A stretch of 61,948 nucleotides of DNA, filler included, from Dimargaris cristalligena (lineage: Eukaryota): NCBI GenBank assembly GCA_003614675.1. It is 2 parts of 2 records of this genome, joined end to end, with 100 filler letters (N's around TTAATTAATTAA, not from the genome) between each part and the next. Parts side by side here need not be neighbours in the genome. Positions count along the whole stretch, not along the records: positions 1 to 30,936 come from ML002448.1; 1 more part is not named here. One strand, written 5' to 3'. The notes beneath the pieces were generated by a model that worked only from the letters and a program-made list of their open reading frames with translations, did not search any database and was not told the origin of the DNA. The translations under genes and the position numbers were made by a program. Positions 1,966 through 61,044 of this stretch are shown piece by piece. Within the stretch, counting starts at the first letter, position 1, and each line of letters opens with the position of its first letter.

Positions 1966-3539
1966 TAGGCCCAACGAATCCCCCGGGCAAGGCAAGCCAG
2001 GACTTACTAAGCCGAGGATCGAGCGGAATCGGCTGATGGATAAGGTGCGGCCGGGTTATAAAGTCGATACTATGCCGGATGATCGGTAATATGAAGACGG
2101 CCATGAATGGCGAGCCGAGACTGGATGGATAGCCGCGCCCCCTTATCGTTGACCTGAAGCTGGACGCCGATTAAGCTAATGGAGGTAACATTAGGGGAGA
2201 AAGGGCGCCACTATCGGCGGCCATGTCTTTGTGGAAAATAGCATATCAGTAAACACCAGATCCAGTGGCACGGAAGACCGTTTTGGCTGGGGAAAACTAG
2301 CCAACCGCAACTGAAGATTTAATCAGACGCGACCAGTGTGGTAACGGATGGTTGGCCCTCCATAGGCGAACGACGAGTATAGCTGCTATCGCCGTAATGG
2401 CTCAAATAAGAGGGAGGAGAAGATAGGAGGACGGGTGTGGATCGCCCGCCCGTGGGGCTGTCGGATTGGTGCTCGTGGTATCAATTGAAAGTGAAAGTGA
2501 AAGTGAAAATGGAACGGCATATACAGAGGGAGGAAGAGGAGGAGGAGTTCCCCATTGTTGGGTTGGGAAGGCGAGAGGCTATACGCGCAACCCGGATAAT
2601 CCACCCAGGCGTGCATATATGCTATGCGAATGAGACTATAAAAGCCCCACTCCGCCCTTCCCGTCCTGTTGCTGCTTTTTTAACCGTCCCTCTTTTAACC
2701 GTCTGTCTTTCGTTTCCTAATTACTAAATACTATTATTATCCTTCTCATCATTATTATTATTAGTATAAGTGTATATTCTCTGGAATAGGCCCATTGGTT
2801 CCCTCCGGCTCTTAGTATATCTCTGGAATAACACCACCGCCCACCTTGACTTGCCCATTCACCCCCCGAGGCCACACTGTGTACTCCCCACCTTTCGCCC
2901 ACTCGCTCGATGTTTGGGAGCCCACACTGCTGTACCCATCGTCACTATTGTATCAGATTGCCATTAGTCTTCCCAAATACTCGACGCATACATATATATA
3001 TATATCTCCCGGCTGCACTGCATTTATCAGCTGGTGTGCCGTGAACCCTCTCACTTGACTGTCATCGAAGCATCCAGCGCTGTATGCACCCATCCTCCTA
3101 TTTCTTCTCTCACTCTAACCTTCTACTATATCCCCCCCTCCTTGTCGGCCGTCTCCTTTTTTGGCCTACTGTCACTGCATTAATGCGACCAGTAACGCCC
3201 GTACTTTTTTACAACTCCGCTGCCTCAGCCTAAGCTGCATATATCATTGTCTATTTCCCCCGCCTCCCTCTTTTCTCCCTTCTACTCCTTAATTCCAGAC
3301 CATCCGTGTCCTTCTCTATTTTATACATACCTACCAATACCACCCTTCCATTCCACTCCTTGTTTTTATTTACGCTGCTCCTATTTCCCTTCTTTATACA
3401 TACATATATATCTATCTATCTATCCAAAAACGCACATACACCCAATAATACACCCAGAGAAATACTAATTATAATCCCGTACCACGTCCCTGTACTGCCG
3501 GGTCCCGTTTACCCCCACTCGACCCTAGTTACACACCAC

Positions 3540-6500
3540 ATGCCTCTACTTGCTAAGCCATTGGGGGAGTCCGACTCATTCCCCCTGGGCCTAGGTCGCA
3601 CCGTTTCCGAGTTCCCCTCTAATATGCGCTCCTCCACCCCCACGACTCCGATTCCCCAGGTTAAACCCGAACTCACCCGAAGCCAGTCTGACCTCCCGGC
3701 AGCCAACGGTAAGCCTACCCCTCCCCACAGTTGGATGTACAGGCGTCCTCTTAAATATATCCATCAAAGCCCTCCCTCGGTATAATCGATCCCAAACCAT
3801 TCTTTCTATTTCAACCCAAACGTGGACTCCTTGGTGGCCACATTCATTCTATCGCCACCTCTTCACCTACACCTTCTTATACAATATTATATATATAGAT
3901 AGTTATTATAGAATACCCTATTATTTCACCTTCCCCTCCCGCCTCCTTATTTACCCTAATAGTTTATGCATAATCTACCCCTTATCCCTCTCTGGAATCT
4001 CGCATCTCATTAACCAGCTGCTGACCGCCTCCGTCGGGCTCGCAAAACCGCTTCCATGCTCTGGCCCTCGACCAGCCAAACTTCCGAATACGTCATTGGC
4101 ATCATGGGTCTAGATGATGCTGATAGCTGTCCATTGCGCCTCAGTCACTTACTCGTAGACACTATTGTCCGTCAGTTTACACTGTGTCAGCGGCCGCGCA
4201 AACACATTACTCCTACATGTACAATTGGTAAGTAGTAGATTGACTGGTTCACTCACTCATATTTTCCTCTTTTTAGATTTATTTTTTTGACCTGATACAT
4301 TAGTTCAGGTGGACTATATATATGTATAATTAGGCCATTATTACTCTTCCTCACCCACTGTGGGCTCTCTCGAATTACAATCCTCTGTCAGTGTGCTTCC
4401 GCTGGGCTTTTCAATGCTTCAATGTTTCAATTTTTTATTGTTATTTTTTGCAACCTTTCTGGGGTGCGGATACCTTTCCTAATGGTGTGTGTGTGTGTGT
4501 GTGTAGAGGGAACAGGGATGATCATTCTCATAAGCAGAGTCGTTCCCCGCTTTTTCGTTACTTTTTGTGCCGGTGTTTTGGTCTCTGGACTGTGGTTATT
4601 TCCAAATACCAACTGGTCTATGTCTGCTAGCGTCAAATTTAGCATACTCCATTGTTTATTTTGATCCAAAGGCACCATCCCTCTCCCCACGCTCCATCAC
4701 TATTCCCATTTGACCTTCGGAAAACTGTGAATGGCTGTTCCTTCGGATGGGTTGCCTAGTTAGTCCAGCCAACCTGGGCATGCCCGCCGATTAGATTTTT
4801 TTAATATTTTTTAATTTAGCCATTTGGTCACTAGCACTCACTCACAGAGACGAGTAAATGTGGCACAGGCTGGCATGGAAACCTACCCTTTCATTTTTAC
4901 CCTTCCCCTCCTTTATTGTGGAAGCCCTCCGCCCGAGAGAGCAGGTTTTCCTTGTCCCTTTTCCTTGTAATCTACCCTCCTTTGAGCAGGTTCATCCGGT
5001 CCAGGCGGATGTGTCCACACCCAACCTCGCATGTATCCAGGCGACCCCCATCTTTAATTCCCACCCCCCTGTCTGGAACTCTGCATGCTCATTTTTCTCC
5101 TTGACCGGGAGCAACAGTCATGCTGGCTGGAGGTGGGTTTGGAGTGAGTGGGGGGTCACTATGGGTCTGCTGCTGATGGATGGTTTTAATTTGCCTGGTG
5201 ACTGCCAAAAGGAAGGAGGGGTGGGTAAAAGAAACGTTGGTTATACGTCGTTTTCATTTCACTTGGCCATTTAGTAACCTGAGGCACTCTGGCATAGGGG
5301 GAGGGTCGATGGTTGGCCTAGTCGTCAGCTATATTGGCCGTGTCATCCATATATTATCTTTCTCATTGCATCAGATACCCCCGCCAGTTCTCCTCCGCTG
5401 ATCCGGGCTGGGAGCGGAGCGTGCAGGAGAACGGTGGGCTAGCTTGGCAAATGTCCATGCCCCTCCTTTGTCAGGACCTTGCTAATCCTTCTTGCATTAA
5501 TATTATTCCCGCACCATCCTCCCTCCTTTCCCCCTCTTCAATTGCATATAAAGGGGAGCCTCCCTCCTATTCCTTCCGATTACCATTCCCCTCCTTTGCA
5601 CTTCTCGTCTCTTCTCTACAAATTATTTGCTATATTGACCCTCAGGCAGATACATACCATACCTTTTATTGCGGATATTCACACCCCAGCCCCACTCCTT
5701 GCCGTTCTTCATTAATGCAGTTTCAATGAGTATTTGACTAACCTCTCAGCCACCCCTGATCGCTACATCGACTAATTCGCCTTATATTTCCCTATTTCTT
5801 GGATCTACCCTACAATCCTTTTCCTTTGTCTGGCGAACAGACAAGTGTAGTATGATCGGAGAGATCCACGGTACCCTTTACCCCATCTATTTAAACCACA
5901 TCGCTGACTCACCCTGCCAAGGTCCACCAGATTCGCTCCCAGCTCAGTGGCCAACCTGCCTTGACCATATACGCGGTCTTGTGATCTGCTCCCAGGTCAC
6001 TGATCTGTTGTCAGTCGCCCGCATCATTAAAGTCCTCCGACTGGTACTGGCCCAAGATATTCCTTTTGTATTGGCGGATTTCCACGCCAACGATACCAGT
6101 CAATCTCTCCTGGTACAGGCGAGTTGTCATTTACACGATCGACTGAATACGGCCACCCCCCCTGGCATCCGCTCCCTTGCTGCAGTAGAACCAACGCGGG
6201 ACACTGCCCATCTCCTGGCTACAGTAGCCTCCTTCTTCGAGGGCCGCTTCGTGTCTATACCATATCAGGAAACGGAGGGCGGTCGTCCGACCCTGAATCA
6301 TCGCGATACCATCGGCCTATTTAACCATATCCTCACCCTGATGGATCAACAGGTCTCTCCCACTCATCCTCTAACTGTTAATCATTCGTCTCCCCCCGAT
6401 TCCCCATCCGCGTATCTCTCGATTGTTCCTACAACCACCAACTCTTTCGTCACCGCCCCGGTTGTCACTCTACCCAACATGTCCGTATTTGCCCTCCCGG

Positions 6501-9500
6501 ACTCGTTTAGTGCTGGTTCGTCCTGCAGCCCTGACTCTTTAGTCCAGCAGCTGGCTGCCTCGACATCGGCATTCTCCCAAGTTGATCAGACCGAAGGCAC
6601 TGCGGCCGAAAACAAACCCCACCATTACACCACCACAGCTCGTAGCCCATTGTCTGGGAAACCCTGGTCAGCTTCATTGGACACTGTCGCTAGTGATGCG
6701 AGTGCCCTACCCTCTCCCGTTCCACCCACCACTCCCCTACCGATACCCAACACACCGTCGATGCCCCATGCTCGGGACTTACCACCACACCTTAAGCCGG
6801 CCCAGATGTTCAATCCAAGCGATTTTCCTCGTCCGAGGACCGTCGGTGATTTGGGCGTGCAGTTTCCTCTAGCATTCATTAGTCAGCGTGCGGTGGACCA
6901 ACCCATGACCGAGTATCGGGCTTGGATTGCTGCCAACCGGCCAGAATCGGAACAGCAGCCTCAGCGCCCTGTCGACCCGGCCTGTGATTGGGACTTGAGC
7001 CACGTACCTACCTATCTCCGCCCATTCTTATGCCAGACCAAGGTTACCCCTATGGGCACATTGCTCACTGTGGATTCTCTAGTAGACCGACTCATTGCCC
7101 CTCATTCCTACCGGGACCTCCGATTCGCCAACACCTTTTTGCTTACCTACCAACGGTTCCTCACCCCTGGCGAGCTGTTCGTTGAGCTCCTCCAACGCAT
7201 CCTGGATGCCCGATCTACCCCAAACGCCCCCCCTACTACGCCTCATTCAGCTACCCACCCCGTGGCCGCTGGTAAGCCCAACTCGGTCACCTTTCGAGTG
7301 TGCCACATTTTAACTCTGTGGGCCTCTGATTACTGGGATGATTTTACTGGGCAGTACTCATCGTCAGCCTTTCGGACAGGTGTGGCGGCTTCCGACGATC
7401 TGCGTCCCCTGTTACATGCTTTTATCCTCGACCCCAGCATGGTAACCAAGTACAAGTTGTCCTGTCGCAAACTGATGGAGGTGCTCTACCAAGATTCACC
7501 CCATTTACGTGACCAGTCTAATCCGCTTAGTTTCCAAGCCCTAATCGAAAACATGCGGGAGGAATCCCGATCCCGCTGCGCTTCCACCGCTGCCCCCAGC
7601 GTGGATTCGGTGACCGAAGCCTCTGAAACGGTATCCGCTCGCTCGAGTCGCGAGGTCTTTCTGTCATTCGAGGATTTTAAATACACTACATCTAACAATA
7701 GCTCCCCGACTACCGTGGGGCCGGAGGATTCTAGCGTAGGCGGTGGACAAATTCGCTCAACGTCCCAACCCGAATCAAAGTCGGAGGCGTTTCTACCTTC
7801 TCGTACCCCTGTCTTCGGTTCACGGTCGGCATTTGACTGTTTTGATCGGCCTGTTGTCGACCTGCAGTCCGAATCCCCCATCACCTCCCCCATTCTGCCT
7901 GACGCACCAACCTTTGCACCATTGATATCTCGTACCCGATCTCGCTTTAATTTGTCGCGCTTCTCCATGGTGCGGGGAGGCCCCGCAGGGTCCCCCCTAC
8001 CCTCCCCCACTACGTCCGCGCGGCCCTCTGTGGCCGAATCTGTCACTCCGAGCGTGAAACAGCGGGAGAAGACTCTTGCCATGACCATGGATAAGCTCAC
8101 CCGATCCTTCCAGGGCGCCAAAAAGGTCGGTAGCTCGTTGGCTGTTCGGCGTGGGCAAACATCGGTGTACCTGACTGTTAATCCCGTAGCCACAAACAGC
8201 GCCACCAATTTCCAGCCTGACCTGCTCCCTGCTTCGCTCTCGGCCAGCTGTCACAGTATTTCCCATGCCCAACTGGGCCTAACCCCAACTGCCACATCAG
8301 CCGCCTTCTACTCTCAGACAAGCGATAATCTATTCTCCCCCAATGCTGCCGTTGACAGTGGCTGCATAATTCCTGTTCCGCGGGATAGTGTACATGTCAA
8401 TGCCGAAGCTGATGTCAACCCAGAAGAGAGCGAGGAGGAGGAGGATGGTTCGGAGGAATACGCTTCCTGCCGCGATTATCTGCACCGACCAAGCAAGGAC
8501 ACCATCATGTCTGACTGGACCGATTTAGGCGATGAGTTGATTGGCGTTGATTTGGAAGGTAACGTCAATGGTACCCTGACTGACTGGGGTGAACCTGTGA
8601 AACCCAACAAATCCCTTCGTCTTATGCAGTTTTCGTTGAGCCGTCGCAGGAAATCGTCGGTTAATCGAGGCCCTAGCGGCGCCCAGACTCCCACTACACC
8701 ATCCACCATTGCGGAATTCTGGTCCCGTCTCGGTCGCAAATCATCCACCACTCCGGGGGGAGCCTTACTCTCCAAGTCATCGAGCAGCTGCAGCGAAGTC
8801 ACAACGCCACGTGAACTACCTCGGGAACTGTTCTCGGATGCGGATGACACTGACCAATGTAGCGAACTGTCTTCAGTAGTTGGCGCCGACGACTCCCGCC
8901 AAGCCTTGGGGAGCGGAAGCAGCCGAGGGTTGGCTAGCTTGACCAAAACTCTACGATTGAAGAACCTGTCCATGTCAATGGGTCGTCCGTCCTTTTCCGA
9001 TGGTCAGCGTCGCAAGGACTCCAGTGAGAGTATTCGCCGGAATACTCCCTATTACCCCACCCAGCCCATCAGCTTCCCTCTACCTCCCCTCACCCCTACC
9101 TCCAGCCTATCCGACGTTGTTGAGCAAAAGATCCGGATTCTACGGAACTATCCGCCCAACGATAAGGTCCAGGTGGACGCCAAATGCGCGGCCCAGCAAT
9201 TGACTTGTGCCGAAATCCAACTCTTTGTCGATATCAAACCTCGTGACCTACTGCGTTACTTTTGGAAACGGTCTGTCCCGCTGGTGGACGGTAGCGCCAG
9301 TGTGAATTTGTCGCTCTCGAAGAATGGGTCGGAGAGTGTTCCGTACATCAGCAAACGGGGAACTAAGCAGGATGCATTTGGTACCCTTGCCCCAGGGTTC
9401 GAACATTTCAACTACGTTGCTGACTGGGTCACCTCAAAGATACTATCCAACGTCCAGGTTCACCAGCGAGTGAAGGTTATTATGTATTTCCTGGACGTAG

Positions 9501-10072
9501 CTGCCGAACTTCTCGCCCTCAACAACTTCAACACCCTTATGGCGGTGATGGCCGGTCTCAATAGCAACGCCATTTACCGACTCCACCGTACCCGGGCAAT
9601 TCTGCAGGAGAACACTGAGTATAATGCTCTGTGGAAGCGCTTGGATGCCTTGACATCGTCGGAACGCTCCTACCGGGCTTACCGTGAGCGCCTCCTGGCC
9701 TCGCCGTTGCCCTGCATTCCATTCCTGGGCTGCTGTTTGCGGGATTTGGTGTTTGTCGATGAATCCCTACCCGAAAATAACCGGGATCAGCTCAAGGGTG
9801 GCATCTCTGCTCCTGGATCCGCCAAAAGTAGTCCGACTAGCACGGTGGTTCCAGCCCTCTTCTGGCGCAAGTTTGAGTTTGTGGGGGATATCATTTTGAT
9901 GCTTCGCAAGCAACAGCGATGCTTCACCAACGAGGAGTTCCCCCAGCACCAGTCGATCCAGTCCAACCCGACGGTGATCCAACTCATTATGGGTCAGCCC
10001 TGTTTGGACGAGAACGAGGCTCACGAACTCTCGTTGCATTTGGAGCCCCGGACGGTTAACGTGCCTCGCTAG
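3540..10072 (+). CDS. Ras guanine-nucleotide exchange factor (REM + CDC25 domains) with an N-terminal degenerate Ras-like domain; 3 exons
   Basis: Exons 3540-3708, 4018-4227 and 5841-10072 join in frame through phase-1 GT-AG introns (gtaagc..cag; gtaagt..cag). REM: DSLVDRL..FANTFLLTYQRFLTPGELF. CDC25: AQQLT..FNYVADWV..LNNFNTLMAVMAGLNSNAIYRLHRT..PCIPFLG. Confidence 0.9.
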
Positions 10073-11786: not shown

Positions 11787-14700
11787 CTATTCTAGTTTTG
11801 CGTGGGCTCTCTCTATCTCTTTCACTCCCTCCGAGGTCGGTGGCATCACATAAACGATAATATCCGACCCAACGGTGGTCATTTCCCGCGTTTCCACGTT
11901 CACTAATCGCAGTATCTTAAGGGAATGGAACCCGGGGTGCTGGGCAGTCAGTTGGACCACGGCCGTATAGTACGAGGTAGGTTCACGCAATTCGATGGTG
12001 ACGTCCGGGGTCATGACGACCAGGCCCGGCAGATCCAGCTGCCCGCTGGAATCATCGGCCTCAATCTGAGCCTGAGTCGGGGGGGCTCTTCCCACGGGAT
12101 CACCATAATTGAGACTACTATTGCTACCACCTCCACCGCCGCCGCTGCCGTTGATGGAAGCGGCCGCGGAAGTAGGGGAAGGGAATAGGAGTTGGGAGGG
12201 GTCCGTCGAGGTCAGTTGCAAAGTTTTGGCCTGGCTGGTAATGTTATTGATAATGATCGTGATTTGAAATGAAGTGCCGAATGGAATCACGGTTTGCGGG
12301 ACTACGGGGTGGTGGGGAGGAGGAGGGATGTCCAATAAAGGTTGGTTAAAGAGGGAGATATATAAATATGTGTGTTTAGTGAAGGTGGATAAACCAAGGG
12401 GCCGAATGAGAGTGCACAGTGGCGGGGGGGAGAGAGAGAGAGAGAGAGAGGCAAAAATTAAGTCGTTGGAGGAGTCAAATGGCTGATTCGCAAGATTATA
12501 TGAGGGGTCTCACCCTTCCCATACACATAATCTGAATCAGACCTCTAGGCCAAGGACTTAAGGGCTATTGTAGCTCACTCGGTCGGGGTGTGCACAAGTG
12601 TGTGTATGTCTGTATGTAAGTGTAGGTGGATGGGCTTAAAGTCCAACTAAAAATAAAGTCATACTCAGTACCCATACTTAATTACCCATGGCTAAAATCA
12701 GGGGGGCGGCTCAACACTTACCGGATATAGTTAAAAGAACTCCCAGTGCGGCGGACCGCACCAGGGGCCGAGTCTTGTATTCAGTGCCCATGGCCCCATT
12801 GGGCGTACTCGCGGTTCGGGAAAGCGGAACCAGGCCCAAGCCATGGATATCTCCTGTGTAACCCCCACTACCTATAAAGGAGTTCAGCCCGTTGAGCGGT
12901 AATGGGGGCCGACTGGTAGTGCTGGCGTTCGAGATCGAGGGCCCACCCGCCATTGCGTTGGTATTAAACGGCGTATTATGACTAGTACCCGGACCATCAT
13001 GGAATAGGGACCGTCGATGGTCTTGGTTGGATGGCCCGTGGTTAGAAGTCGGACCTCGGTTCGTGGCCGTCGGAGTCGCCGCCGGGTCCACATTATAGTT
13101 CGAGGGAGAATTCCGGCTTAATCGGTGGGGATCGACGTAATAATTGGTGGAAGCATTCACCGCTGTTGTTGCCGCCGCCGTCGTCGTCGCGGGCATCGTT
13201 GTCGATGTCATCATTGAAGAGTTGGACGTGGCATTGGGGTGGTAGGTCGCACTGGAAGGGCCAAACAACACGCCCTCGAGCGCAATGGACGACATATTGG
13301 ATGCGGTTGAACTCAGCCGGAACCGGTTACCCGTTCCGCCCCGCGGTCCCTGGTGGAGGGGCGGGAGGGGACGCAGTAGACTAGCAGCCAAGACCGGGGG
13401 TAGGGACAGGGGCCTAGGTCGGCCCGATTGGCCAGCGAGACCGGGCATCGTCCGCAGGAGATGGGAGGGGGTATGATTTGGGTTCAGATTGAGGCTGGGT
13501 TGGGGTCTGGTCCCCCGCAAAGAGCGGTGATCACTACCATTCCCCCCCCAAGGGGGTACGATGGCTGCGAGCCCAAATGGGTCGAACCGGCTGGTCCACC
13601 GGGCGTACGGGTGGGAAAGGCGGCCAACGAGGGCGTCAGAGGGTATTGGCTGCTGCCCTCCCATATGGCCCGGGTAGACATGTTACTCGTGTGTCGGTTC
13701 CCCCAGTTAAACATAGGGTCCACATATGAATGGCGGTTGGAGGTGGAGGTGCTCGACGGAGTGGGCAAAAAGGCGAGACCCGGGGTTTCCGGCAGGAGGA
13801 TGCCCGGTTGGCACGGGGCAAAAAAGGGTACCTGGGCCAAATCAACCTCATAATAGTTGGTGTGTAAGTAAGGCCGGGCCGCCGGGGTGGTGGGTTCGGG
13901 CTGGCACTGCTTCGGAGAGGGACCCGGATTTTTTCGTTGTTTGAGGCAGGGATACCCCCGAATCACCACTTTGAGCAGGGGATCCGTCGCTAAGTTTAGA
14001 CTCTGGTCGGTGGGGCTGAGAAGCGAAGGGCCGGACGAGTTCCAGTTGGCCACCGGTGCTAGCCGGTACACGATGTTATGGGTAGCCCCCGCGGAGATCT
14101 TAAGGGGGAATACGGATGTAGGTCTATCGGGCCATGACGTGGCCGCGACCATCCCTGCCGAAGACGCCAAGGCCGAGGATGAAGCCGAAGCCGAATTCGT
14201 GGTTGAGGTTGAGGTCGAAGTTGAAAGGAGAGGGGAAACGGACAACTGGGAGGACGGATGGGGATTATGGCCCGTCATAGGTCCCAGAATATCCGATACC
14301 ACCGCAATATTTGATTCGGCCGTTACTTGTTCCACCACGTAATCAAACGGCGCATAGGGGGATGAGGCGTTGACCAGTTCGACCGTTAGAAACAAGTCAG
14401 CGGGGTGATCCATCTGGGTAAACTCGTAGCTCACTAACAGTCCGGCCTGGAGGGGGAGAAGGAAGTCGACCGACTTTGTCAAGTGTCGGGGGTTAGTGGC
14501 AATCAGATCATGGCCAACCGCTCGTTGTTCCATGTCACCCTCGGAAGTAGCACCGTCCCGGTTGAAGTGGCCCGTGTCTAGGCTTAGCCAGTCGGACCCC
14601 GTTCGCTCCATACCCGCCAAACCCAGGAAATTTTCACTTGCGTCAAAGTGCCCATTGGCAAGAGTTCCGGTATCCGCCCCCGCATTGGGAGATGCGACCT

Positions 14701-16324
14701 TACCACTGTGATTCAAAGCACCACCACTAGCAGCAGCACCATTGGTATCGTTATAGGTATCAATAGTCCAGCCCCCTAGGCCGGCCACCAAATCGCCCAA
14801 GGCACCCAAGGTATTCAATTCGAGGGTCGAATGGGCCAACCCGGGGCACGGGTCAGCCGGGCGGATTTTAGTCCACTGGCCCACCGCCGTGAGGGTGATT
14901 TGCACGGTGGGACATTCGTGGACCAGGGGCGCCTGTACGTTTTGCAGCGGAATAGGTAGTTGGAAAATGGCGGTGGGTTTTTCGGCCCGGTCTTGGGTTA
15001 GTATCCAGAGCCGATTGGATCTGCCGGCTGCCGAATTACGCCAAGCCACCGTAGGCCCCCCCGGTGAGCTAGAGGAGGGGGGTGGTGGTACTTGCGGTCT
15101 ACCGAATCCCACGGCATTAGGCTGGATTGTCAAGGAAAGCCAGTGGGAGGAATGCCCATTATCCGCATGGGACGTCGTCGGTTGGCCAACTCCTATATCT
15201 CCTGCGCCCGAGAAGGAGGGATTGCTGTTCGTCAGGGAGGGTGGTCGAAGGGCCGACGGATGGTGGTTAGATGCATGCAAAATTTTCGAACCATTGCCCG
15301 GTTGGGAGGCAGTACGACGAATATTGGTTCCACTAAATTGGCCCAAGCTCTGAATATTGTAACGCATATTCGCCTTGCCCCCATAGTGGGGGGGTTCCGG
15401 GCCGGGGGTCAACTGGGGCGGACCGGTATTGCGGTCAAACCGGGCGGAGGCGGGTGGAGAGACAGGAGCACCCATCGGTATGTCGTTGTTGGGGTTGCTT
15501 TCGGCGTAGTACTGGGCCGGGTCGCTCATACGGGTCGGTGGGCGCCGGTACTGACCATTTGATTGACTGGGCGTGGTTGTTCGCCGACGGTCATTTCGAG
15601 AAGGGTGTTTTTGGTGGTGGTGGTGGTTGGTGCTGATATTGTTATTGAAGCCGCTTTGGGTCGGGTCGGCGGATGGGGGAGTGGTGTTACTGACCAATGG
15701 GTGCACGGGTTGGTCGGACCCGCCGACGTTCACGTAAAATTCCAGTGCACTGAAAAATTCATCCAAGGGATCTTCAAGCAGGGCCCAGTCTAAGGCTACT
15801 TCGGAGGCCATACACCGGGCCTTGACTTTATCCCGCCAGTTGGCCGGTAATTGGCACACCGTATACAGGGTCAAGGGCTCACCTAACGGGGTAGAAGTGT
15901 TGGTGCAGCGGAAAAATGGAAGGGCATGGGTTAGTAATGGTTAGGCCTAGAGTTCGTTTTAGAACTGACTCCCAAATATTGGCAGGCCTAAGCGGGGTCA
16001 TCGTTCGCCTTTCAATACCTAAATATAAGGTGTCCCGAAATGGACGCATTTGTAAGATGGGTCAACGGTATGGGCGTACGGCCCGGGGCTGGAAATGCGT
16101 AGAAGGAGGGACCTTTAAGCCTGGAGGGCCCCGATACCTCATCTCATTCGGAGTATCAACTGACCTGTAAAGACATGTCGGCGCTGGAATTGGAGCACCG
16201 TGGTTGCATCTCCGACCAGGTCGTGGTGAAATGGGTCGTCGGTCAGGCGGGTCGACCACTCGCTCAGTTCCAACAGATGGCGAAACAGCTCGGCCGGTAT
16301 GCGCCCATCGCCAGTGGTGACCAT
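11787..16324 (-). CDS. TRS65: TRAPPII-specific subunit Trs65-like protein; 3 exons, apparent frameshift at a G8 run
   Basis: Exons 16324-16165, 15882-12722 (frame change near 13542-13549) and 12301-11787, with canonical GT-AG junctions giving QRRHVFTG|EPLTLY and LTIS|VPQTV. Trs65-like blocks: LFLTVELVN..FPLKISAGATHNIVYRL and FQITIIINN..GLVVMTPDVTI..GFHSLKILRLVNVET. Confidence 0.75.
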
Positions 16325-33165: not shown

Positions 33166-35148
33166 TTATGCAATAATTGTAGTGGTTTGGTCGTAGTAAC
33201 TAGACCGAGTTTCCCAAGCCGAGCGGTAAGGAACGGTAAAACCGAAGCCAAATCCGTTGACATTACAAGTCTCGACGAAATCGTGCAGACCATTCATAAG
33301 GGCCAAGTCGTTATGGCGGGCGCTGGATAAGCGCCCAGCGATGGTGGTGTCGAAGACCGGGCGTGAATGGCGGGTAAGTACGGGAATGGTTCTCGGGGCA
33401 GCTGGTGCTTCCTGCTGACCGCGCAACACAAACCATTCCATCACACGGTTGCTGAGGCTTGGTTTGCGGGCACTGGTGGTGCTAATTATTCCAATCGGGG
33501 GAGCCACGGGGAGCGCGTTAATGTTGGTGGATCTTACCAATAAACTGTCAACTTTCACTGGTGTGCTTCTGGTGGTGGAGGCTGACCATGAGTTTGGCAG
33601 AGACTGGATTGAGGCATTAGACATGGTGGATTGAGAGGCGACCGATGCACTGATTCCTGTATCGAGGGAATGGCAGCGGGTCAGGCTGACGTCCTTGATG
33701 CGGTGATGGCGAAGGGAATCCTGGAGAGACTCAAGGCTCACTAGACTACGCGAAGAGTTGAAGATGGGGATCGGTGATTTGCGGTTCAGATAAGCCGGAG
33801 ACTGACAGCAGATGGTATGGTCGGAGGTAATGGAACTGATGGGTGACAGTTGACCGCGGAGATTTTGCGAGCGGGGCGATGCAATGATGTCGTCGCATAG
33901 CAGAAGACCATGTCGGATAGCCTGTTCGCGGGCCCGTTGCTTTTCGTATACGTCGGCTCGATATGAGGCCAGCACGGCATACGGGGTGGGGCTGGTAAAA
34001 AAGGCCAGGGCGTGAAGCAGCCCCTGGCAACAGAGAATGACCCCACTCGACCAAATCAAATCAGGGGACGAACGGCCAGAGTACGCTAAAAGGTCGTTCG
34101 ATATAAACGGCAAGTAACAAATTGCCAGGGATATGGCATAGAAGGTTACTGATAAAACAGCACGGAAGATTGTGCGACGGGGGACAAAGTCAACTGTGGC
34201 CAGCGGGAAGGGGCTAAGCGGGGACAGCAGTCCATTTAGTACCGACTGTCGGGCTTGGTAACGTATACAGAACTTATAGCTATAGTCGCGGTACCGATCA
34301 AACGAATTAGCGGCCGAGCATAGGGACGGACTGGGAAGCACGTTGGACGGCTCGGTCACAGTTTGGCGGAGAGAGGTGACTTGGCGGGATTGATAACGAA
34401 GGAGGAACTGTATGGCCCAGCCCAAGGCGTAAGCGGCGAAGAGGACCCCAAACAGGATCCAGATTCCCAGAAAAGACCAATAAAGTGCCGATGCCAAGGT
34501 GATTTCATGATCGGTGAATAAAACAATACTGGCGGAGGGCCCGGCGACGGATGTGGCACCGGCCAGGTATAAAATTACCGGGACTAAGCTGAACAAGGCG
34601 GCCAATCCAACGGACCCGACTAAACAGCCACGCTCAAACTGCTTATTAAGGCGCAGTAATTTATTTGCGGCGTCCAGGTGCACATTCACCAAATTCAGTT
34701 CATAGTGGGACTGGACGATAAACGCAATGATGGCGAAGATTGAGGCCAACGTAGCAAAATGGGTACCCCAGGCGATGAAGAGAGTAGCACCGCGGGTGGA
34801 TTGATTTAAAACTTCCGATTCCGACGCTCCAAACGCATGAAATGCGGGTTGCAAGCCGAGGACGTTAATGGATGACTCCAGTGGATTGATGCCGGAGGGA
34901 ATACCAGCAGCGGTAGGGAGAGGAGCGGGCAGCACGGCGGTATTTAGCAGTTGAAAAACGGCGAGAATAACATCCGTGATGGCAATTAAGATAGCAAACC
35001 GAAAGGAGGCATGGTTGACTTGGCGGTACTTCCAGTTGAGGAGGAAGACGCCCAAGCCGACAATGCCGAGGGAAGCAAGCACGGAGAGGCTGCTGAGAAT
35101 CCTAGTGACGCTGATATACAGGCCGAATTGGGCGACTGCAGCTGGCAT
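33166..35148 (-). CDS. Seven-transmembrane GPCR-like protein (Git3/cAMP-receptor-like) with long Ser-rich C-tail
   Basis: 660-aa intronless ORF with seven hydrophobic segments (SLSVLASLGIV; SFRFAILIAITD; WGTHFATLASIF; GLAALFSLVPV; WSFLGIWILFG; FYAISLAICYLP; CQGLLHALAFF). FR...IA..D in TM2 and QG...AL.F in TM7 are typical of this fungal class. Confidence 0.75.
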   Translation of the reverse strand: MPAAVAQFGLYISVTRILSSLSVLASLGIVGLGVFLLNWKYRQVNHASFRFAILIAITDVILAVFQLLNTAVLPAPLPTAAGIPSGINPLESSINVLGLQPAFHAFGASESEVLNQSTRGATLFIAWGTHFATLASIFAIIAFIVQSHYELNLVNVHLDAANKLLRLNKQFERGCLVGSVGLAALFSLVPVILYLAGATSVAGPSASIVLFTDHEITLASALYWSFLGIWILFGVLFAAYALGWAIQFLLRYQSRQVTSLRQTVTEPSNVLPSPSLCSAANSFDRYRDYSYKFCIRYQARQSVLNGLLSPLSPFPLATVDFVPRRTIFRAVLSVTFYAISLAICYLPFISNDLLAYSGRSSPDLIWSSGVILCCQGLLHALAFFTSPTPYAVLASYRADVYEKQRAREQAIRHGLLLCDDIIASPRSQNLRGQLSPISSITSDHTICCQSPAYLNRKSPIPIFNSSRSLVSLESLQDSLRHHRIKDVSLTRCHSLDTGISASVASQSTMSNASIQSLPNSWSASTTRSTPVKVDSLLVRSTNINALPVAPPIGIISTTSARKPSLSNRVMEWFVLRGQQEAPAAPRTIPVLTRHSRPVFDTTIAGRLSSARHNDLALMNGLHDFVETCNVNGFGFGFTVPYRSAWETRSSYYDQTTTIIA

Positions 35149-38100
35149 TATTAGTGTGCCTGGACAATGAATGGTAGTTAACTATCGACTATTACAAAGT
35201 TAAATTCTACACAATTATGTAATTTTAGGGAAATGATTAAAATACTTCAGTAACTGAGGTTCGAAGAATCGATTTCAATCCAGAAGACAGTTTTAGATGA
35301 AACCGCAGGTGCGGCAGGATTATGTATTGGGTTGGTAGAAGAAAGATGCTTAGATATCATAAACTAGGGATGGATATGGGGTTTAAGGCGTCGATATGGA
35401 GGCCATAATCATGAATGGTTTGCAGATGAATAGCATTGAACCATGCAGGTGGAAGCTGCTGTAAGTCAATGGGTGGTCACTAGGAATTACCGAAGCAAAG
35501 TTGACGGGCTAGGGGTTCAGTTTATATATCACAGACTGGTATTTACACCCATATTTGTAGCCTAGTCGTTGTATTTTTTTTAGAGGAATGCTTTGTTTAC
35601 TCTATTTCGACCGCAAAGGATCGTATTCCGTGGCGGGCTTTGAGTAGCCCTTTCCCACTTCCTTTTTGTTTCGATACTTTTCGGACCAAAAAACCAACCT
35701 TACCCACGCCTAGCCAAGGGTTCTCTAGTGTATCTAACGCGGCCTACAGTGCACTGCGCGAGTTCTTTGGAAAGGGGGTGTTCAGGATCGCGTAAACTCT
35801 GCCCTAATACACCCCTAATACTATTCTCTCGGCTCACCGTGATGATTGACACCATTTTTACATTTGTGACAGCTACCCGTCTAATATGGGAATCAGGGAT
35901 TCGTAAACATACTAACATGTTCTTATAGCCACCCCGGTTAAAGCGACGTGGAGAATAGGCATTGATAGAAGGGGAGGTGGGTGAGGGGAGGGCGGGGCAA
36001 GCCTTTGCAGAATAATGGTGAGCTTCTAGGCTGAGAATCGAACCCCCAAAATAGGAGCCGTTGGTCAGAGGGGCGGGCAAGTTAGGTAGTGTTCTGCTAC
36101 TACTTTCCTGTGGGTTTCATGGAGTACCATTTGGGCACTGTGTACCCCCGCCCCCTTTCGGGTCAGCAACAATGATTTGCTGCCGTGATAATGAATGGCC
36201 CCTGCCACTCCCACCCGTTTGGCATGAATATACCCCATCAATCGCAGCGCCTCCCCTGCCCCCCGTCCCCACTGGGGTAAGGCTCCTTAGTTGGACAAGC
36301 CTTTCTCTCTCTCGTCAATCTCCAGGTATATTCGGGGTCTCCCCTACGCATAGGGAGCAGGCCCCTGCAATGAACACATGATACCTTATACCGCATTTTC
36401 CACAATACAAATCATAACAATACTCAGCTACCTTGTTTATTAGTCACTCAGACATAAACAAACCCCGTCCCACTATTGCGAATAGCCAAAAGGGTTATTT
36501 CTATGTTCTGTTATGTGAGAACCGATTGCGGGCGGCATAGACATTTCTTTTGTTTACATTTTAGTGCGCGCGCCTACCCTCAGTCCTCAACTCGTCGCAA
36601 GTAGTGATTATGCATATACATTATAAATACATGCCGCTAAACACGATCGTATAGTATACTAGTTCGAGGTTACAGGCACGTCCACCTGTTTTTTAATCTA
36701 TATCTCACCAACTATCACTGTAAGTAGATCTCGGAACTCAATAACTGTCAAAACTCGAGTGTGTAATATAGCTACAATTAACGAGGTGTTATAGCAGTGA
36801 CCAGACGCGCCCTTCGACAGTGTATCATAATTAATGTTAAAGGCTTGTCTGTGCGTTACACGTATAACTGATCCACACATATCATAGGGAATGTAGAATA
36901 CAGGTTCTCTAGTTGAACACTACACGGCATTCAAGGACCGGAAAAAGGTCTGAGTACGTGTATCATGGATATATTCAATCAAATCTGGTAGTTCCATTTT
37001 GATGCCTTGTTTTAGGCGACCAACCCTGTACTGTTAGTAATGGCTGAAGTATATCAGGTAAATAGTTGGTAATATCATGTGTTGTATTGTTCTATAGAAA
37101 TCGGCTATACAGTCATTGGGATTTCACACCCATTGAACAAAAAACGCGAACGCCTACCCGGGTTATTTAATGAGAAAGGTGCAAGTCTATTGCCTGCGAG
37201 GTATTTCAGAATGCCGAGAACATTCAGTGTGGACTATGTTGTTTAGGTGCCCTAAACAGGATGTCCACATGGTGTCGTGCACTCCCGCAGAGTATAGTCC
37301 GATATCCTACAGAGCTCTAATTATTGTTAAATTACCGATGGGAAGCCTTGTCGGGGCAGTTTTTTAGTAACCTTGGTCCGTAATGCTACCTATGTGCAAA
37401 GCACGACCAATTAATAAATTTTGACTTGAAATATAATGTAAACTCCTGATATTGGACGGTTCCAAGATTTATACTATGATTTCGAATGTCTTTAGGTTTA
37501 GGTTGGCACTCACTATTCTACCAGTGTCCTCAATGAACCCTTGGTTTAACAACTATATACATTAACCTTACTTTTTTTACATTAATTCTGCTGAAATACC
37601 GATCCCCACAGTGGTTTCACTATTTACGAGCATAGATGACTGCAAGACCTCTGGATGGCATTGTACTGGGAGAAACTCATAAAACTTAGACTCTCCCAGA
37701 TGAAACTTGTTTGAGAGTCTTTAACCAGTAAATCGGAGGCCGTTGTTGGAATCATTGGAAGAGCAAAATAGCGGCGCCCTTGGAATGAGGGGGTGTCTCG
37801 ACAAACCAGTCTTTATCTAATTCAGTACATCGGGGCACCCGTGGACCCGCAAATACTATAGTAAACATTCGAAAAGAACTGGATGGTGTAAATATGGGGT
37901 TCACATTACCCCCATATTGTATTATTATTCTTTTTGGCTACGCAATAGGGTTTCTGGGATATGATCATAATAAATTATATCACGCCGATCCCTAGTGAGG
38001 TGATTTTATTTTAATGGCATTAGGCTGATAGTATCTCCATATATGAATAGCTCTTGAACCCGCTGGGTGTGTTCATGGCTTCCAAATCTATCAAAGGCCT

Positions 38101-40493: not shown

Positions 40494-41416
40494 TTTATTA
40501 CATTTATACACATATATGAATAGTCCCACCAGGGTGCAAAGCCCTCAGTGTAATATATTATTGGACGGCCCTTCACTCATTCCTCCTGTCCACAGATAGG
40601 TGGATATTGTCATACCTCCCCCTACCGTGGTAGGACAGCCCGGCCGACTAAAATACGACCACAGCTCACCTTCCAATTGACCTGGACGTGGTTATCGTCC
40701 ACACTCAGTGAAGCCCGAATGGCTGACATTTAGTCCACCGGAGGTAGCACGCGACACTGTAGAAGGTCCATGGGACATGGCAGGTAGTTGGAGGAGTTTT
40801 AGACGGTGCCCACTGGGCTTTTCACTGGCTATGTATTGCTGTTTGATCTGTCCACTCAACTCTCCCATCCGGGCGCCTTAGCTTAGGCTTCGTTTTGCAT
40901 CTCTTAGTATCGCTAAGCGCCGCCGAAGTATTATTGGTCTAATGGTAATTTTTCCCTTGTACAAAATGGAATTGGGCCTTCCTAAAAGGGGCCACTGTAC
41001 AACCCACCACACTGGGAACCGTGTGATAGTCAATTATATGGACGGTTTCGCTCATTTTTGAGTACCAGTCGGATCTTAGCGGGATGGAACGGTGGTCATG
41101 AAAATCTTTAAACTAACCCACTTTGGGGTAAGCCCACCTCCCCCCTTTCTTGTATTTCCAACCCGACGACCCCTCCCCCACTCTCGGCTGGCGTCCGATA
41201 ATACATATATAACCCTACCATCCACTTGCCCTGTTGTTGAGAGGTCATGCCACTGATGCATAATATTGTGATCCACTTCGTTCATTTTGCTGTTCCAGAA
41301 TTCGCTGCACTTATTTATATTACACGTGGCCATTACCCGTGTATGCCGCTCTCCATTTGCTAATTTTGAATTTGTCACCTGCTTATTTTTGCCGTGTGGC
41401 TTATGCAAACACGACC

Positions 41417-42859
41417 ATGCGGGTCCGTTTATCGCTTTTGCTGCTTTCCCTGATTAATGTGGGGTCTACAGTCCTTGCGGAACCCATTAATTCGGACGGG
41501 GATACTTCATCGACGAGCCAAAATGACGGTAAGCGCTCACTCACATCAACACCCAACATCACCCACCAAGACCGGTTCAGTCTCATCATGCTTCTTGCCA
41601 AGCCCCATATTACCCCCGACCTGTCCTACGCTTTGCAAACCGTGAATCGCAAGCTGTACAGCCAGCATAGCGCCTTGGCAGCCCAATGTCGCTCAAACTA
41701 TCTATGTCTGCTTCGAGTGGCGGTCAATCGTGGCGGTCTGGTCGACCCATCCATCGAAACCATACTAAACAATCTAATCTCGCAAGTGACCCTCCTCCAA
41801 ATTTTTGCGGCGCTGGATACCGAGATTAAAACTTGGTTATATTCTTACATTACGCCCGCTATATTGGGCAACGGCGGGCAAACTGGGCAATTGAATGTCG
41901 TCAGTGATACCGTACAGCACGCGCTTCCTATACCCCAACTACCCACGGAGATTCGTCCTGTGCCCTATTTACAGTTAAACCAGTGGGCCGATGAATTCCC
42001 GTTGGTGAACGCCATTAAGGCGGGCCCTGCCACGGCCCGGTTTATAGTGACCCTCTTCGAACAATTAGTCCGCCTCGTCATCACTAGCCGGCTTGATCAA
42101 ACCGAAACAACTTCTAGCTTGGTCGAGTTGATTCAGGAGGGGGCCGATGGTGCTGGTTCATCAACTTGGGACCATTTCCGACTGTTCAATTATGTTCAGA
42201 AGAATACCCCGGGCTTTTTCAGCGACCCTGTTATCCTTTTTCGCCGCTTAGTCATGGAAGTGTTCCGGGAATTATTCTACATAGCCTATCGTGAAAAGCA
42301 GTGGGATACCTTGCAGCGGCTTTTAACCACCATACACCGCCACCATTCCGTATTCGGTCGCTTCCAGACCTACTACCATGGTGTCCTGCTAGTGGCTCAA
42401 TTTGCCGAGCCCGGGCGGATGGCCTTTATGGAGGGTCAGCTCCGCTATATGACAGCAAGCGACCGCCTCACCTTGGTGACTTGTGCCCGGCACCTAAATT
42501 TGGTGGAGGCGGCCGAGTTCTTGACCGATGGGTTATGTGCCAACCGATCCGTGTTGTCGATGGGCCTTTGCATGTTGTTGGATCCGAATACCTCGGGTGA
42601 AGGAACTGTTCACCCTAACCTGTGTAACGGGCTCCTGGATCTACCCGAAAGATTCCTAGTGACCCACCGATTGGATGATTACTTCCAATTTCGCGTAGTT
42701 CCCGACCAGCCCTACCCTGAAAGGCTATATAGTGAAGGCGTCGATGTCAGACACTCCCTCCCCGGGCTAACCAAAGACAGTGGTACTTCCAACCAAAGAT
42801 GGCTTGCCGTGAAGAAATGGATAAAGAAAAGAGCGAGCCATGATCAATTTAACCAATAA
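41417..42859 (+). CDS. Secreted protein of unknown function (~480 aa)
   Basis: Long intronless ORF. Signal-peptide-like MRVRLSLLLLSLINVGSTVLA|EP, then an acidic pro-segment ending in KR. No recognised domain. Confidence 0.75.
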   Translation: MRVRLSLLLLSLINVGSTVLAEPINSDGDTSSTSQNDGKRSLTSTPNITHQDRFSLIMLLAKPHITPDLSYALQTVNRKLYSQHSALAAQCRSNYLCLLRVAVNRGGLVDPSIETILNNLISQVTLLQIFAALDTEIKTWLYSYITPAILGNGGQTGQLNVVSDTVQHALPIPQLPTEIRPVPYLQLNQWADEFPLVNAIKAGPATARFIVTLFEQLVRLVITSRLDQTETTSSLVELIQEGADGAGSSTWDHFRLFNYVQKNTPGFFSDPVILFRRLVMEVFRELFYIAYREKQWDTLQRLLTTIHRHHSVFGRFQTYYHGVLLVAQFAEPGRMAFMEGQLRYMTASDRLTLVTCARHLNLVEAAEFLTDGLCANRSVLSMGLCMLLDPNTSGEGTVHPNLCNGLLDLPERFLVTHRLDDYFQFRVVPDQPYPERLYSEGVDVRHSLPGLTKDSGTSNQRWLAVKKWIKKRASHDQFNQ

Positions 42860-50029: not shown

Positions 50030-53000
50030 TTAATGTCCGTCCATAGCATCCCCGTCGGAGGTAATTTGGTAAATATCCCCGATCCGCAAAAGCAGCTGTT
50101 GAATCAGGCCCACCAAGTGTTGCGGCCGGGGGAACGCCAACAGACGGATGAATTCGGGGTACAAGACTCGCATTTGGCGGTGGATTTGGGACTTGTCCAT
50201 ATCGAGAATATTTTCCAGGATGTTCACCACGACCGGCTGCCAGGCCTGGATGTGCCGCTCGGCGGTGTGCGGGTCGATACGATTAAAGTGTATGAACACG
50301 TTTTGGGAGAGGGGCACGAGGCGGTCTTCGACTTCTACAGCGATGAGTTGGCGTTCGGAGGAAGTGTCGGCGTACATGCGGTAAAGGATTGACATGGCGC
50401 ACTGGAGACTGTTGACCTCTTGCTTGAGAAGACTGGGTACTTGGGTCATGAACCCACTTTCCACTAGGGCTAGGCGGAGCTGGACGTCAGCGTTGAACTT
50501 GCGCGCAAACTGGTAGGATTTGTCCAGGCAATCTAAAATGAAAAACAGGTGGTTGGATTCCAATGACCGGTAGATGGACGCATTCTTGTGGAAGAGATCA
50601 TCCACAGTCTGGATTAACAGGAGCTGCAGCACACACTTGAGGGTGATCCGCTGGTATTCTTCCTGCGGGTCTCCCTTCCAGCTCTTAGGTTTCGGGGGCA
50701 GTGCGCTGACCAAATCACCGCTACCTCCCCCTAGCTCGTGACCATTACCCCCACCATTGTTACTATTGCTCCCCACCGGACGGAAATTAGAGCCCGTTCC
50801 GTTTAGACCGGAAGTAGGCACAGGCCGGCCACTCATTTCGAACAGCACGTGGGGCACACTGGTGTTGAATAAGTTGAGGAACGTCCGGCAAATCTGATGC
50901 CAAGCGGTCTCGTCGAATTTCTGGTGGTTATTTTCAATTAATTCCTGGAAACAAGCAGTACCAATCCGGGCCAGCGTCTCACTGTCTTGGGCGATACAGA
51001 TACTCAGTAATTCGAGGATACCGTCCAGTGTGGGGCACAGCGTCTCGTAGTAGTGCGTGAACAAGTCAATCAAGTTCCGCAGGGCCTTGATCAGGGTCGT
51101 GGAGAACCAGAATGTAATGTCCTCCTGGCGTCCGAACCGTTGACTGGTTTCGGGGGACTTCAAGTCCCGGAAGATGGGGTATACGACATCCCGCAGAATG
51201 AGTGACCAGAACTCGAACGAGAAGGTGGAGCCGTAGTTCTTGAGGAATTCGAACAGGTAGTTAAGGGCCTTGGTGCGCACTTCTAGATCGTCACAGTTCA
51301 TGATAATGTCGTACATGGCGTAAAACACGGGGAACCAGAGTCGATAGACGGGGTCTTCGTTGGGGGGCAAAGCATCGGCTCCCGCTAAGCGGGCCGGAGT
51401 GGTCCCACCCCCGCCGGTAGTAACCGTCCCGTTGTGATGAGCACCGGCCTTATTACCACCTTTCTCCGACATGGTCGTTTCAGAAGCGGAGACATCATTC
51501 CGTTGGGCCGCCGGGGTTTGTCCTCCAGCGGCGGCCACGGCGACTGCGGCCGCATTCGCCAGCTGGTGATGTACGGTCGTAAACCCGGGGTCCTGCAGCC
51601 GGGTAGCCAGGTTCTTCGCACACAGGTATAGCATTTCAATGGCCTGTAGACTAGACCGCTGGTGCATCGACGACGTACAAAACTCCGTTAGGCACAGGAT
51701 GAGGTCGGGGAAACTACCGAGGGTTACGATATCGTTGAACCGTTCTTTACACACCTCGCGCAGGATTTCAAAGGCCATAACCACGATGGGTTCGCTGGGC
51801 TCCCGGGCGGCGGTCGAGAGCACGGACAGGATCGTCTTCCAGCCGGATCGGACATGGTCGCTGCGGGAACGGATAATGTGTTGCAGGCAGCGCAGTACCA
51901 TATCCTTAATGGAAACGTCCGGGCTATTCTCCAGGATAAAGTGGAAGGGCCGTAGGAAATCCTTCTGGAATTTAAAGTGAGCCAATTCCTCCTTTTCCAA
52001 GAATTTCATGGATAGCTGGCGCAGGGAGTCCAGCGCGAAGAACCCGACTTGGACATTAGGGTGGCAACCCACCTGGTTAAAGTGGTCCCCCAGGATGGCC
52101 CACACATTGGACCATTCCATACGGATACGGCTCATGTTATAGTAGGAAATCTCGACAATCTTTTGGAGACTGTAGAGTCGCGGGTGGGTATGGCCACCAA
52201 ACGTCGAATTCTGAATCTCCTCCCACGACACAATGCTCAGGGCCCGCACGAATTCGACGATCCCCGTACCGGAAAGTTTAACACTGGAGCTGAAGATACG
52301 GTCCACCGCCACCACGAGGGACTGGGAGTTAGCGTCCAGCCGGGATAGATCGGCCAGTTGCAGGGACCGGTGCTGCCGGGTCACCCCGGGGCGTTGTTTA
52401 CCCGCCGTAATCACCGAACTACGCTTAAGGCGGTCGCCCCCGGGCACGTTACGCCCGCGGTCTGGACCAGGACTACGGGGAATACCCGCGGATCCACCCG
52501 AGCCTGTGGCGGAGGCGCTGCTAGTATGGCCGCCTACACTGCCCAAGGCCGAACCGGTACTTGTCCCCGATACGCTTAGGTTCCGGGGCCGATTATCCAC
52601 CGAACCCGATGAAGGGATAAGTAATGACGAGGGACTACCCCCGCTCGACCCACCACCACCCATGACGCCATCGTTGATCAGCTGCAGGCGTTCCAACTGA
52701 CTCACACAGGTCAACACATCCAGCCAGGACTGGTTCAGGTCGTTTCCGTCAATAGCCGCAATGTCGAGCAGCGTTTTGATGGCCTCGATATTCTTGGGCT
52801 TCATTTCCATGAGGTTGGCCAACACTGTGAATTTAGCCAGCGTCGATACAAACGCGTCGCGCTCGAGGGCCAGGTCAAAGGTCGCTGCAATATGAATGGC
52901 GTGCCGGAAACTTTCCAAACAAAGTTGGATAATGTCGGGGTCATCTAGCTCTTGGGCAGGCCCACTGATCCCTGCCAGGATGGGCATCCATACGATTTCG

Positions 53001-60802: not shown

Positions 60803-61044
60803 GGTGGGGAAATAAATGAGACAATGCCAAACAAGGAAAGATAGTGTACACTAACGATACAAATGGGCTGCAGTAAAGACTGACGATTTGTTATGTAAGA
60901 AATGAGAACAAAAGAAGCTTAGGAAATGTAAGCCATAGGTTCAAAGAAAGAAGGGGAAGAACTAGACTACAAAACCACATGCTACAGTAGTGAGGTGAAT
61001 GTGAGTGAAATTAGAATGAAGAATTAAACCATTGTAAAGGTTAG

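Follow-up and report, generated by a model that had tools for sequence, protein, structure and literature searches.

Few pseudoGTPase domains are known, and for most of them the mechanism is obscure. By the definition given in PMC5593906, they have the GTPase fold and lack the G motifs; the class definitions used below come from the same source, where the best-studied pseudoGTPase inside a GTPase regulator belongs to a RhoGAP. In that protein, p190RhoGAP, the pG1 and pG2 domains are nucleotide-free by measurement, and domain deletion is reported to lower the GTPase-activating protein (GAP) activity (PMC5593906). Here we analyse a stretch of 61,948 nucleotides (filler included; hereafter the window) of the fungus Dimargaris cristalligena (assembly GCA_003614675.1), which carries a gene encoding a guanine nucleotide exchange factor for Ras (RasGEF) in the part taken from record ML002448.1. 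We consider it probable that this gene, on the + strand from 4018 or 4056 (possibly 3624) to 10072, encodes a spliced pseudoGTPase-RasGEF fusion of about 1470-1510 amino acids (aa). The sequence itself shows how the exons are arranged, that the protein is colinear with its orthologs, that REM and CDC25 domains are present and that the nucleotide-binding motifs are lost.

One of the closest parallels is p190RhoGAP. Its pG1 and pG2 resemble the window domain in having a GTPase fold, degraded G motifs (all five) and a place within a small-GTPase regulator, in cis (PMC5593906). The p190RhoGAP domains sit in the middle of a metazoan RhoGAP, whereas the window domain would be N-terminal in a CDC25-type GEF of three Dimargaritales fungi. 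No sequence relation between the two was detected, and the nucleotide-free state that was measured in p190RhoGAP is inferred for the window domain. Two class i pseudoGTPases, CENP-M and the pseudoGTPase domain of AAGAB, are also comparable: both have the G-domain fold without conserved G motifs and are used for protein binding (PMC5593906, PMC12490416). They differ in being stand-alone or chaperone parts rather than parts of a GEF, and have no sequence relation to the window domain.

Two other proteins combine a G domain with a RasGEF in one chain. In the Dictyostelium Roco protein GbpC, a Ras-like domain and REM/CDC25 domains occur together and regulation is intramolecular (PMC6320773). There, however, Roc is a GTP-binding domain on which the protein's own GEF acts, in the company of leucine-rich repeat, COR, kinase and cGMP-binding domains (PMC6320773), whereas in the window protein the motifs are lost. 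Roc, COR and kinase domains gave no Pfam match in the window protein or in its two orthologs, where only RasGEF and RasGEF_N were found; the absence of Roc-COR sets the window protein apart from the Roco proteins. The other case is a transcript of the amoebozoan Soliformovum irregulare (P0003), whose product has a G domain, REM and CDC25 in the same N-to-C order. MAFFT lines up its beta1, beta4, beta5, beta6 and alpha5 with the window domain. Unlike the window domain, that of P0003 retains the full GxxxxGKS P-loop and is matched significantly by Pfam Ras (PF00071, E 3.9e-19), which served as the positive control for the Pfam searches below; the GEF of P0003 is not detectably closer to that of the window than other RasGEFs are (E 2.8e-15). 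The NKxD position of P0003 reads ATFAD in the MAFFT alignment. A search with aa 45-380 of P0003 for fusions of Ras, REM and CDC25 returned 108 matches, with PF00071 in P0003 alone. The functional Ras-REM-CDC25 architecture exists but is rare, and the sequences give no indication that the P0003 type is ancestral to that of the window. A pseudoGTPase together with a RasGEF was not found in the literature searched, by titles and abstracts.

The RasGEF of the window lies in a + strand frame that is open from stop to stop over 5738-10072 (1444 codons), and reading from ATG 5852 to the stop TAG at 10070-10072 gives exactly 1406 aa. That it is a RasGEF, as the initial annotation had it, is confirmed by Pfam. 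The CDC25-homology catalytic domain (RasGEF, PF00617) is found at 9191-9784 (E 6e-43, 147.3 bits vs. a cutoff of 23.1, aa 1117-1314), and the REM domain (RasGEF_N, PF00618) at 7067-7357 (E 9.6e-16, 58.4 bits vs. a cutoff of 28.3, aa 409-505), both on the + strand and both numbered on the translation of 5843-10069. The gene thus encodes a eukaryotic CDC25-type RasGEF by its domains, from which exchange activity is predicted.

The same annotation had proposed that two upstream exons, absent from the 1406-aa open reading frame (ORF), splice in frame onto it. This is borne out by canonical splice sites, by the absence of internal stops from the open frame they create and by an ortholog, described below, that is colinear over the 4227/5841 junction. 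The join of 3624-3708, 4018-4227 and 5841-10072 (+ strand) is 4527 nt long, or 1508 codons plus TAG, with zero internal stops. Both introns are of phase 1 and GT-AG: the donors read CAACG|gtaagc at 3708/3709 and AATTG|gtaagt at 4227/4228, and the acceptors ...aaccag|CT at 4017/4018 and ...gaacag|AC at 5840/5841. The exon coordinates proposed earlier were correct except for the ATG of exon 1, which is at 3624 and not at 3625.

The two upstream exons do not stand equally. Exon 2 (4018-4227) has homology to the Dispira ortholog, whereas exon 1 is not needed. The frame of exon 2 is blocked upstream by TAA 4011-4013, and its first ATG, at 4056-4058, precedes the segment EYVIGIMG (which starts at 4086) by 10 codons. 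The Dispira ortholog starts similarly, 13 residues ahead of its corresponding strand, YKIAVVG. Exon 1 is therefore optional, and the RasGEF product is predicted to be either 1467 aa (from ATG 4056) or 1508 aa (with exon 1 included). The tentative exon 1 (3624-3708, + strand) begins with ATG 3624 and contributes 28 codons and one base of Pro/Ser/Thr-rich sequence. A GTAAGC donor and a CAG acceptor link it in frame to exon 2, and the putative intron 1 (3709-4017, 309 nt, GT...AG) is real only if this exon is used. Homology lends no support to exon 1: the Dispira protein begins later, and the long low-complexity N-terminus of the second ortholog aligns only loosely.

From 4086, exon 2 is predicted to encode beta1, a degenerate P-loop (GLDDADSC) and alpha1. 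Intron 2 (4228-5840, + strand) is 1613 nt long, runs from GTAAGT to ACAG, is C/T-rich on the coding strand and includes a (TG)n run at about 4484-4505. Its length is unusual among the genes of the window, most of which are long uninterrupted ORFs. Rfam families gave no match at E<=1 over 3000-6000, intron 2 included, and the repeats in the intron are short ones only, with nothing that accounts for its 1613 nt. An alternative acceptor at 5749, just 3' of the branch-point-like TGACTAAC, was rejected because it is out of frame with the RasGEF ORF. Exon 3 (5841-10072) extends to the stop TAG. Its first part, 5841-6343, where the segment ILTLM ends, would encode the remainder of the pseudoGTPase domain in the order beta2-beta3, alpha2, beta4, alpha3, beta5, a disordered insert, alpha4, beta6 and alpha5.

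The splice of exon 2 to exon 3 is supported by homology. The closest relative of the window protein is a 1336-aa 'hypothetical protein' of Dispira parvispora (P0001; automatic annotation); the second is a partial protein of 1218 aa from Dimargaris verticillata (P0015). In tblastn against all 61,948 bases, aa 11-47 of the Dispira protein match 4080-4196 with E 0.002 (E 7e-4 when 12 kb are searched), and its aa 58-224 match 5840-6349 with E 1.3e-9. The D. verticillata protein matches 5882-6277 in exon 3 with E 6e-19 in the whole-window search, where its first strand and helix, which are too diverged, give no match to exon 2. The 10 Dispira residues between the exon-2 and exon-3 matches correspond without a gap to 10 window residues over the splice, hence no residue is missing or extra. 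In a three-way alignment the window protein and both orthologs are colinear end to end. The 4227/5841 junction is in this way supported by homology as more than a product of chance.

Could exon 2 nevertheless lie outside the mRNA? The RasGEF would then start at ATG 5852, the upstream match would be a decayed remnant or part of another transcript, and a truncated, non-folding fragment would be left at the N-terminus. A 1613-nt intron in a window of mostly uninterrupted ORFs, and an exon-2 match that is short (39 aligned residues, E 0.002), would speak for that. Exon 2, however, is open, in phase and followed by a consensus GTAAGT donor, and the junction restores exact colinearity with both orthologs. 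Moreover, the predicted sheet could not form from the part encoded by 5841-6343 without beta1 and alpha1, and this part is nevertheless conserved to the D. verticillata protein at E 6e-19. We find this alternative very unlikely. Rather, the models described below support a domain of about 215 residues that needs exon 2 joined to exon 3, with exon 2 supplying beta1 and alpha1.

The absence of the nucleotide-binding motifs GxxxxGKS, DxxG and NKxD, noticed initially in the window alone, extends to all three species. At the P-loop position, aligned on beta1, the sequences are GLDDADSC in the window, GLGDLAGS in Dispira and GLETSDQA in D. verticillata. The Lys and the Ser/Thr of GxxxxGK[ST] are missing in three of the three species, and acidic residues lie within the position in the window and in D. 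verticillata. Where NKxD would follow beta5, ADFHAN, VNLQPQ and VDFQPQ stand instead, in the same order of species; DxxG after beta3 and SAK after beta6 are likewise absent at the aligned positions in all three, motif positions beyond beta1 being dependent on an alignment of low identity. With the P-loop Lys/Ser, DxxG, NKxD and SAK lost, the domain is best read as a pseudoGTPase. Judging by the missing P-loop Lys and Ser/Thr and by the acidic loop residues, it is probably of class i, i.e., one that does not bind nucleotide.

It should be noted that the Dispira copy retains a glycine-rich loop, GLGDLAGSS. This would suit an unconventional nucleotide-binding G domain (a pseudoGTPase of class ii or iii, or a nucleoside triphosphatase of altered specificity) that is the cis substrate of its own CDC25, as Roc is in GbpC. 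GbpC is reported to carry a G domain in cis to a RasGEF, with exchange taking place within the molecule (PMC6320773), and P0003 carries an intact P-loop Ras domain at the same position in the protein. We nonetheless give this idea little credence. None of the three species keeps the P-loop Lys or the Ser/Thr after it, the loop is acidic in two of them, NKxD, DxxG and SAK have disappeared as well, and the P-loop position varies from species to species, as a working site would not.

The fold of the domain was predicted with AlphaFold2. Model 1, of aa 1-232 of the Dispira protein, has a mean predicted local distance difference test score (pLDDT) of 58.9, a predicted template modelling score (pTM) of 0.64 and the elements b1 a1 b3 a2 b4 a3 b5 a4 b6 a5. 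Model 2, of the D. verticillata segment (pLDDT 61.6, pTM 0.63), has the beta2 hairpin too. Both show disorder in the switch regions and in an insert of 25-45 residues lying between beta5 and alpha4. A Foldseek search of the PDB with model 1 found no fewer than 500 matches at E<=0.001, with a best E of 7.2e-6 and a target-normalised template modelling score of up to 0.68; the best 48 of these (at least 500) matches are all Ras-superfamily GTPases (Rab, Rheb, Rho, Gem, Ras and Arf).

VIA-align searches against 48,161 representative chains, in which GTPase status was judged from entry titles, gave the same picture. The top match of model 1 is Rheb (Z 13.7, root-mean-square deviation (rmsd) 3.1, 158/166 aligned), and all of its best 50 matches are GTPase-fold entries. 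Known pseudoGTPases are among its matches: p190RhoGAP-B pG1 (5u4v) with Z 12.1, rmsd 2.6 and 130/136 aligned, and the AAGAB G domain with Z 11.2. Model 2 matches Ypt32 (Z 15.1, rmsd 4.4, 171/193 aligned) and Gem (Z 15.0, rmsd 3.5, 158/165 aligned), and only GTPase entries are found among its best 50. By the guidance for VIA-align, models without a clear match typically top out at Z 7-8, so that the values of 13.7-15.1 are well above background. The N-terminal domain is thus predicted to have the Ras-superfamily G-domain fold.

Sequence comparison does not reach Ras, and several facts weigh against the fusion and against the fold. Pfam found no GTPase family at E<=10 in aa 1-232 of the Dispira protein, where DUF2585 alone appeared below cutoff, and phmmer against PDB sequences gave three matches at E<=10 with no GTPase among them. 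The three-species alignment (A1) compared by hhalign with the genuine Ras domain of P0003 reached a probability of 0.15%. Pairwise local and global scores against the same Ras domain had z of -0.35 to 1.7, the observed score being reached by 21-188 of 300 shuffles. The models, for their part, were built for the ortholog domains and not for the window protein, to which these are 23-38% identical. Both come from one alignment of four rows (the two ortholog domains, window exon 2 and window exon 3) and, sharing this four-row, three-species alignment, they are not independent. Their confidence is moderate, with pLDDT below 50 for 90 of 232 residues in model 1, including the beta2/switch regions, and for 82 of 228 in model 2. 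As to the gene itself, a 1613-nt intron is long for an ORF-rich window, its splice is supported by homology and not by reads, and the ortholog gene models are automatic annotations, one of them partial.

Other searches in the window gave similar results. Pfam found zero GTPase families at E<=10 in 5843-6550 and none at E<=1 in exon 2, and when the exon-3 protein was entered with its first 230 residues in a word-indexed search for homologs, 1573 candidates came back, none at E<=0.001. By profile and motifs the domain is not a member of the Ras family. Two weaker signals point in the direction of GTPases. The A1 profile gave 13 sub-threshold matches to PDB sequences, namely 10 to Rheb, 2 to UDP-glucose pyrophosphorylase and 1 to DDX53; those to Rheb are colinear (profile 11-136 with Rheb 6-120) at E 0.27-0.81, a weak lead. 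The language-model neighbours of the two ortholog domains include Ras, Roc, Arf and CENP-M clusters and unnamed archaeal clusters (scores 0.82-0.90); these are leads only, as is the CENP-M cluster among the neighbours of the D. verticillata domain (score 0.84).

These results bear on the resemblance to Ras that the initial annotation had drawn by eye, segment by segment and in order. The letters do not carry it: the scores being no better than those of shuffles, the identities to Ras are not above chance. The listed pairs of segments do coincide with the secondary-structure elements that the models show, and so the claimed order of correspondences was right. The small-GTPase fold itself, which had been anticipated, is returned by AlphaFold2, Foldseek and VIA-align on the ortholog domains, and does not reach significance in profile and sequence searches.

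One may then ask if the N-terminus is unrelated to G domains, AlphaFold2 having produced from a very shallow alignment a generic alpha/beta fold of three layers whose likeness to small GTPases is accidental. The low pLDDT (58.9 and 61.6), the four-row alignment and the lack of a significant sequence or profile link to any GTPase would fit such an outcome. A generic fold accounts less well for the full Ras order of strands and helices in both models, or for best matches that cover 150-171 residues of GTPases of 165-193 residues with Z 13.7-15.1. All the best-ranked structure matches are GTPases and no other alpha/beta fold is among them, and the sub-threshold matches to Rheb and the language-model neighbours agree. 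On balance we think it quite unlikely that the resemblance is generic, and we continue with the pseudoGTPase fold.

An exhaustive phmmer search with aa 1-232 of the Dispira protein against 1.84 billion representatives found two proteins at E<=0.001, the query itself and its D. verticillata counterpart. Both are from Dimargaritales, and the window adds a third, distinct species, with a domain identity of 23-38%. By these searches the pseudoGTPase-RasGEF architecture has so far been seen only in three Dimargaritales fungi. In the main text of a Kickxellomycotina genome paper (PMC9866270), the terms intron, RasGEF and GTPase and both species names are absent.

The order of parts is common to the three species: the pseudoG domain, a linker motif TVGDLGVQFPLAFISQ, REM, a long disordered Ser/Pro-rich spacer and CDC25. 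In the three-way alignment, more than 200 residues of linker lie between the pseudoGTPase domain and REM. The motif TVGDLGVQFPLAFISQ lies in this linker (6839-6886, + strand) and is nearly identical across the three orthologs; it could be a docking or regulatory element. TEYRAW follows it by a few residues, and the surrounding linker is otherwise disordered. REM and CDC25 domains are usually adjacent in RasGEFs. Here the spacer between them (7358-9190, + strand) is of about 610 residues, mostly Ser/Pro/Thr-rich and poorly conserved, and the conserved islands within it include SLAVRRGQ and TPSTIAEFWSRLGRKSS.

How might such a domain work? A pseudoGTPase domain that cannot switch would, for that reason, serve as a fixed protein-binding surface and thereby regulate or position the GEF. 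CDC25 domains have their highest affinity for nucleotide-free Ras, and dominant-negative Ras sequesters GEFs. SOS is tuned by a second Ras, Ras-GTP, bound between REM and CDC25. Given the affinity of CDC25 for empty Ras and the tuning of SOS by a second Ras, a tethered empty mimic could be either a pseudo-substrate or an allosteric ligand. In the version that we prefer, the domain would be a tethered, permanently empty Ras mimic that acts in cis as a pseudo-substrate or decoy for the CDC25 catalytic site. Alternatively, it might occupy in cis a distal REM/CDC25 position, as Ras-GTP does in SOS, the model for the built-in allosteric regulator that the initial annotation had envisaged. The two systems are alike in that a Ras-fold protein bound outside the catalytic site tunes exchange; they differ in that the ligand of SOS is a separate, GTP-loaded Ras, whereas the ligand proposed here is a tethered, nucleotide-free domain. 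The mimic would be released when a signal from upstream acts on the conserved motif TVGDLGVQFPLAFISQ in the linker. This scheme as a whole, a mimic that plugs the CDC25 site or fills an SOS-like distal site until a signal on the linker frees it, is argued by analogy and we hold it to be unlikely in its particulars. A complex prediction of aa 1-232 of the Dispira protein with its aa 395-620 and 1015-1336 (score 0.00, mark 0.34), run without alignments or controls, says nothing either way.

The fold may also be real and act in trans, as a module for scaffolding, dimerisation or localisation whose partner would be, e.g., a Ras effector, a GAP or a membrane protein, with no contact to REM or CDC25. 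Known class i pseudoGTPases are protein-binding modules, an example being the AAGAB domain, which binds AP1/AP2 sigma subunits (PMC12490416), and the linker to REM, at more than 200 residues, would fit as well. Nothing specific speaks against a trans role, which differs from the fusion as proposed above in the partner alone. We consider it somewhat unlikely as the explanation of the domain; between cis and trans workings, by analogy, scaffolding or localisation in trans stands on a par with a cis role.

The rest of the window looks like an intron-poor fungal locus, as judged from a Pfam scan of 14 of its long ORFs, which include a pyridoxal phosphate-dependent enzyme, a haem lyase and CLPTM1. 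A Sec7/BIG-type ArfGEF with DCB, HUS, Sec7, HDS and BIG2_C domains is present as a single ORF of 2364 aa at 50033-57124 on the - strand, and is adjoined by the ORF of a DEAH-box helicase (950 aa, 58001-60850, - strand). Three ORFs gave no Pfam family at E<=1e-5: 13487-15940 (- strand, 818 aa), 33169-35181 (- strand, 671 aa) and 41264-42856 (+ strand, 531 aa).

In closing, the architecture is so far limited to three species of an obscure mycoparasitic order, and beyond the sequence all is prediction. The domain would escape an automatic annotation based on the 1406-aa ORF alone, and Pfam fails to recognise it even in the correctly spliced orthologs. If true, the fusion of a pseudoGTPase to CDC25 would extend pseudoGTPase regulation to the activating arm of the Ras cycle, and it would make testable whether a tethered nucleotide-free Ras fold can inhibit or prime a GEF in cis. 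Should the tethered-mimic scheme also hold true, the window protein would be the first case of a RasGEF under the control of its own pseudoGTPase, and would offer a natural template for Ras decoys aimed at GEFs.

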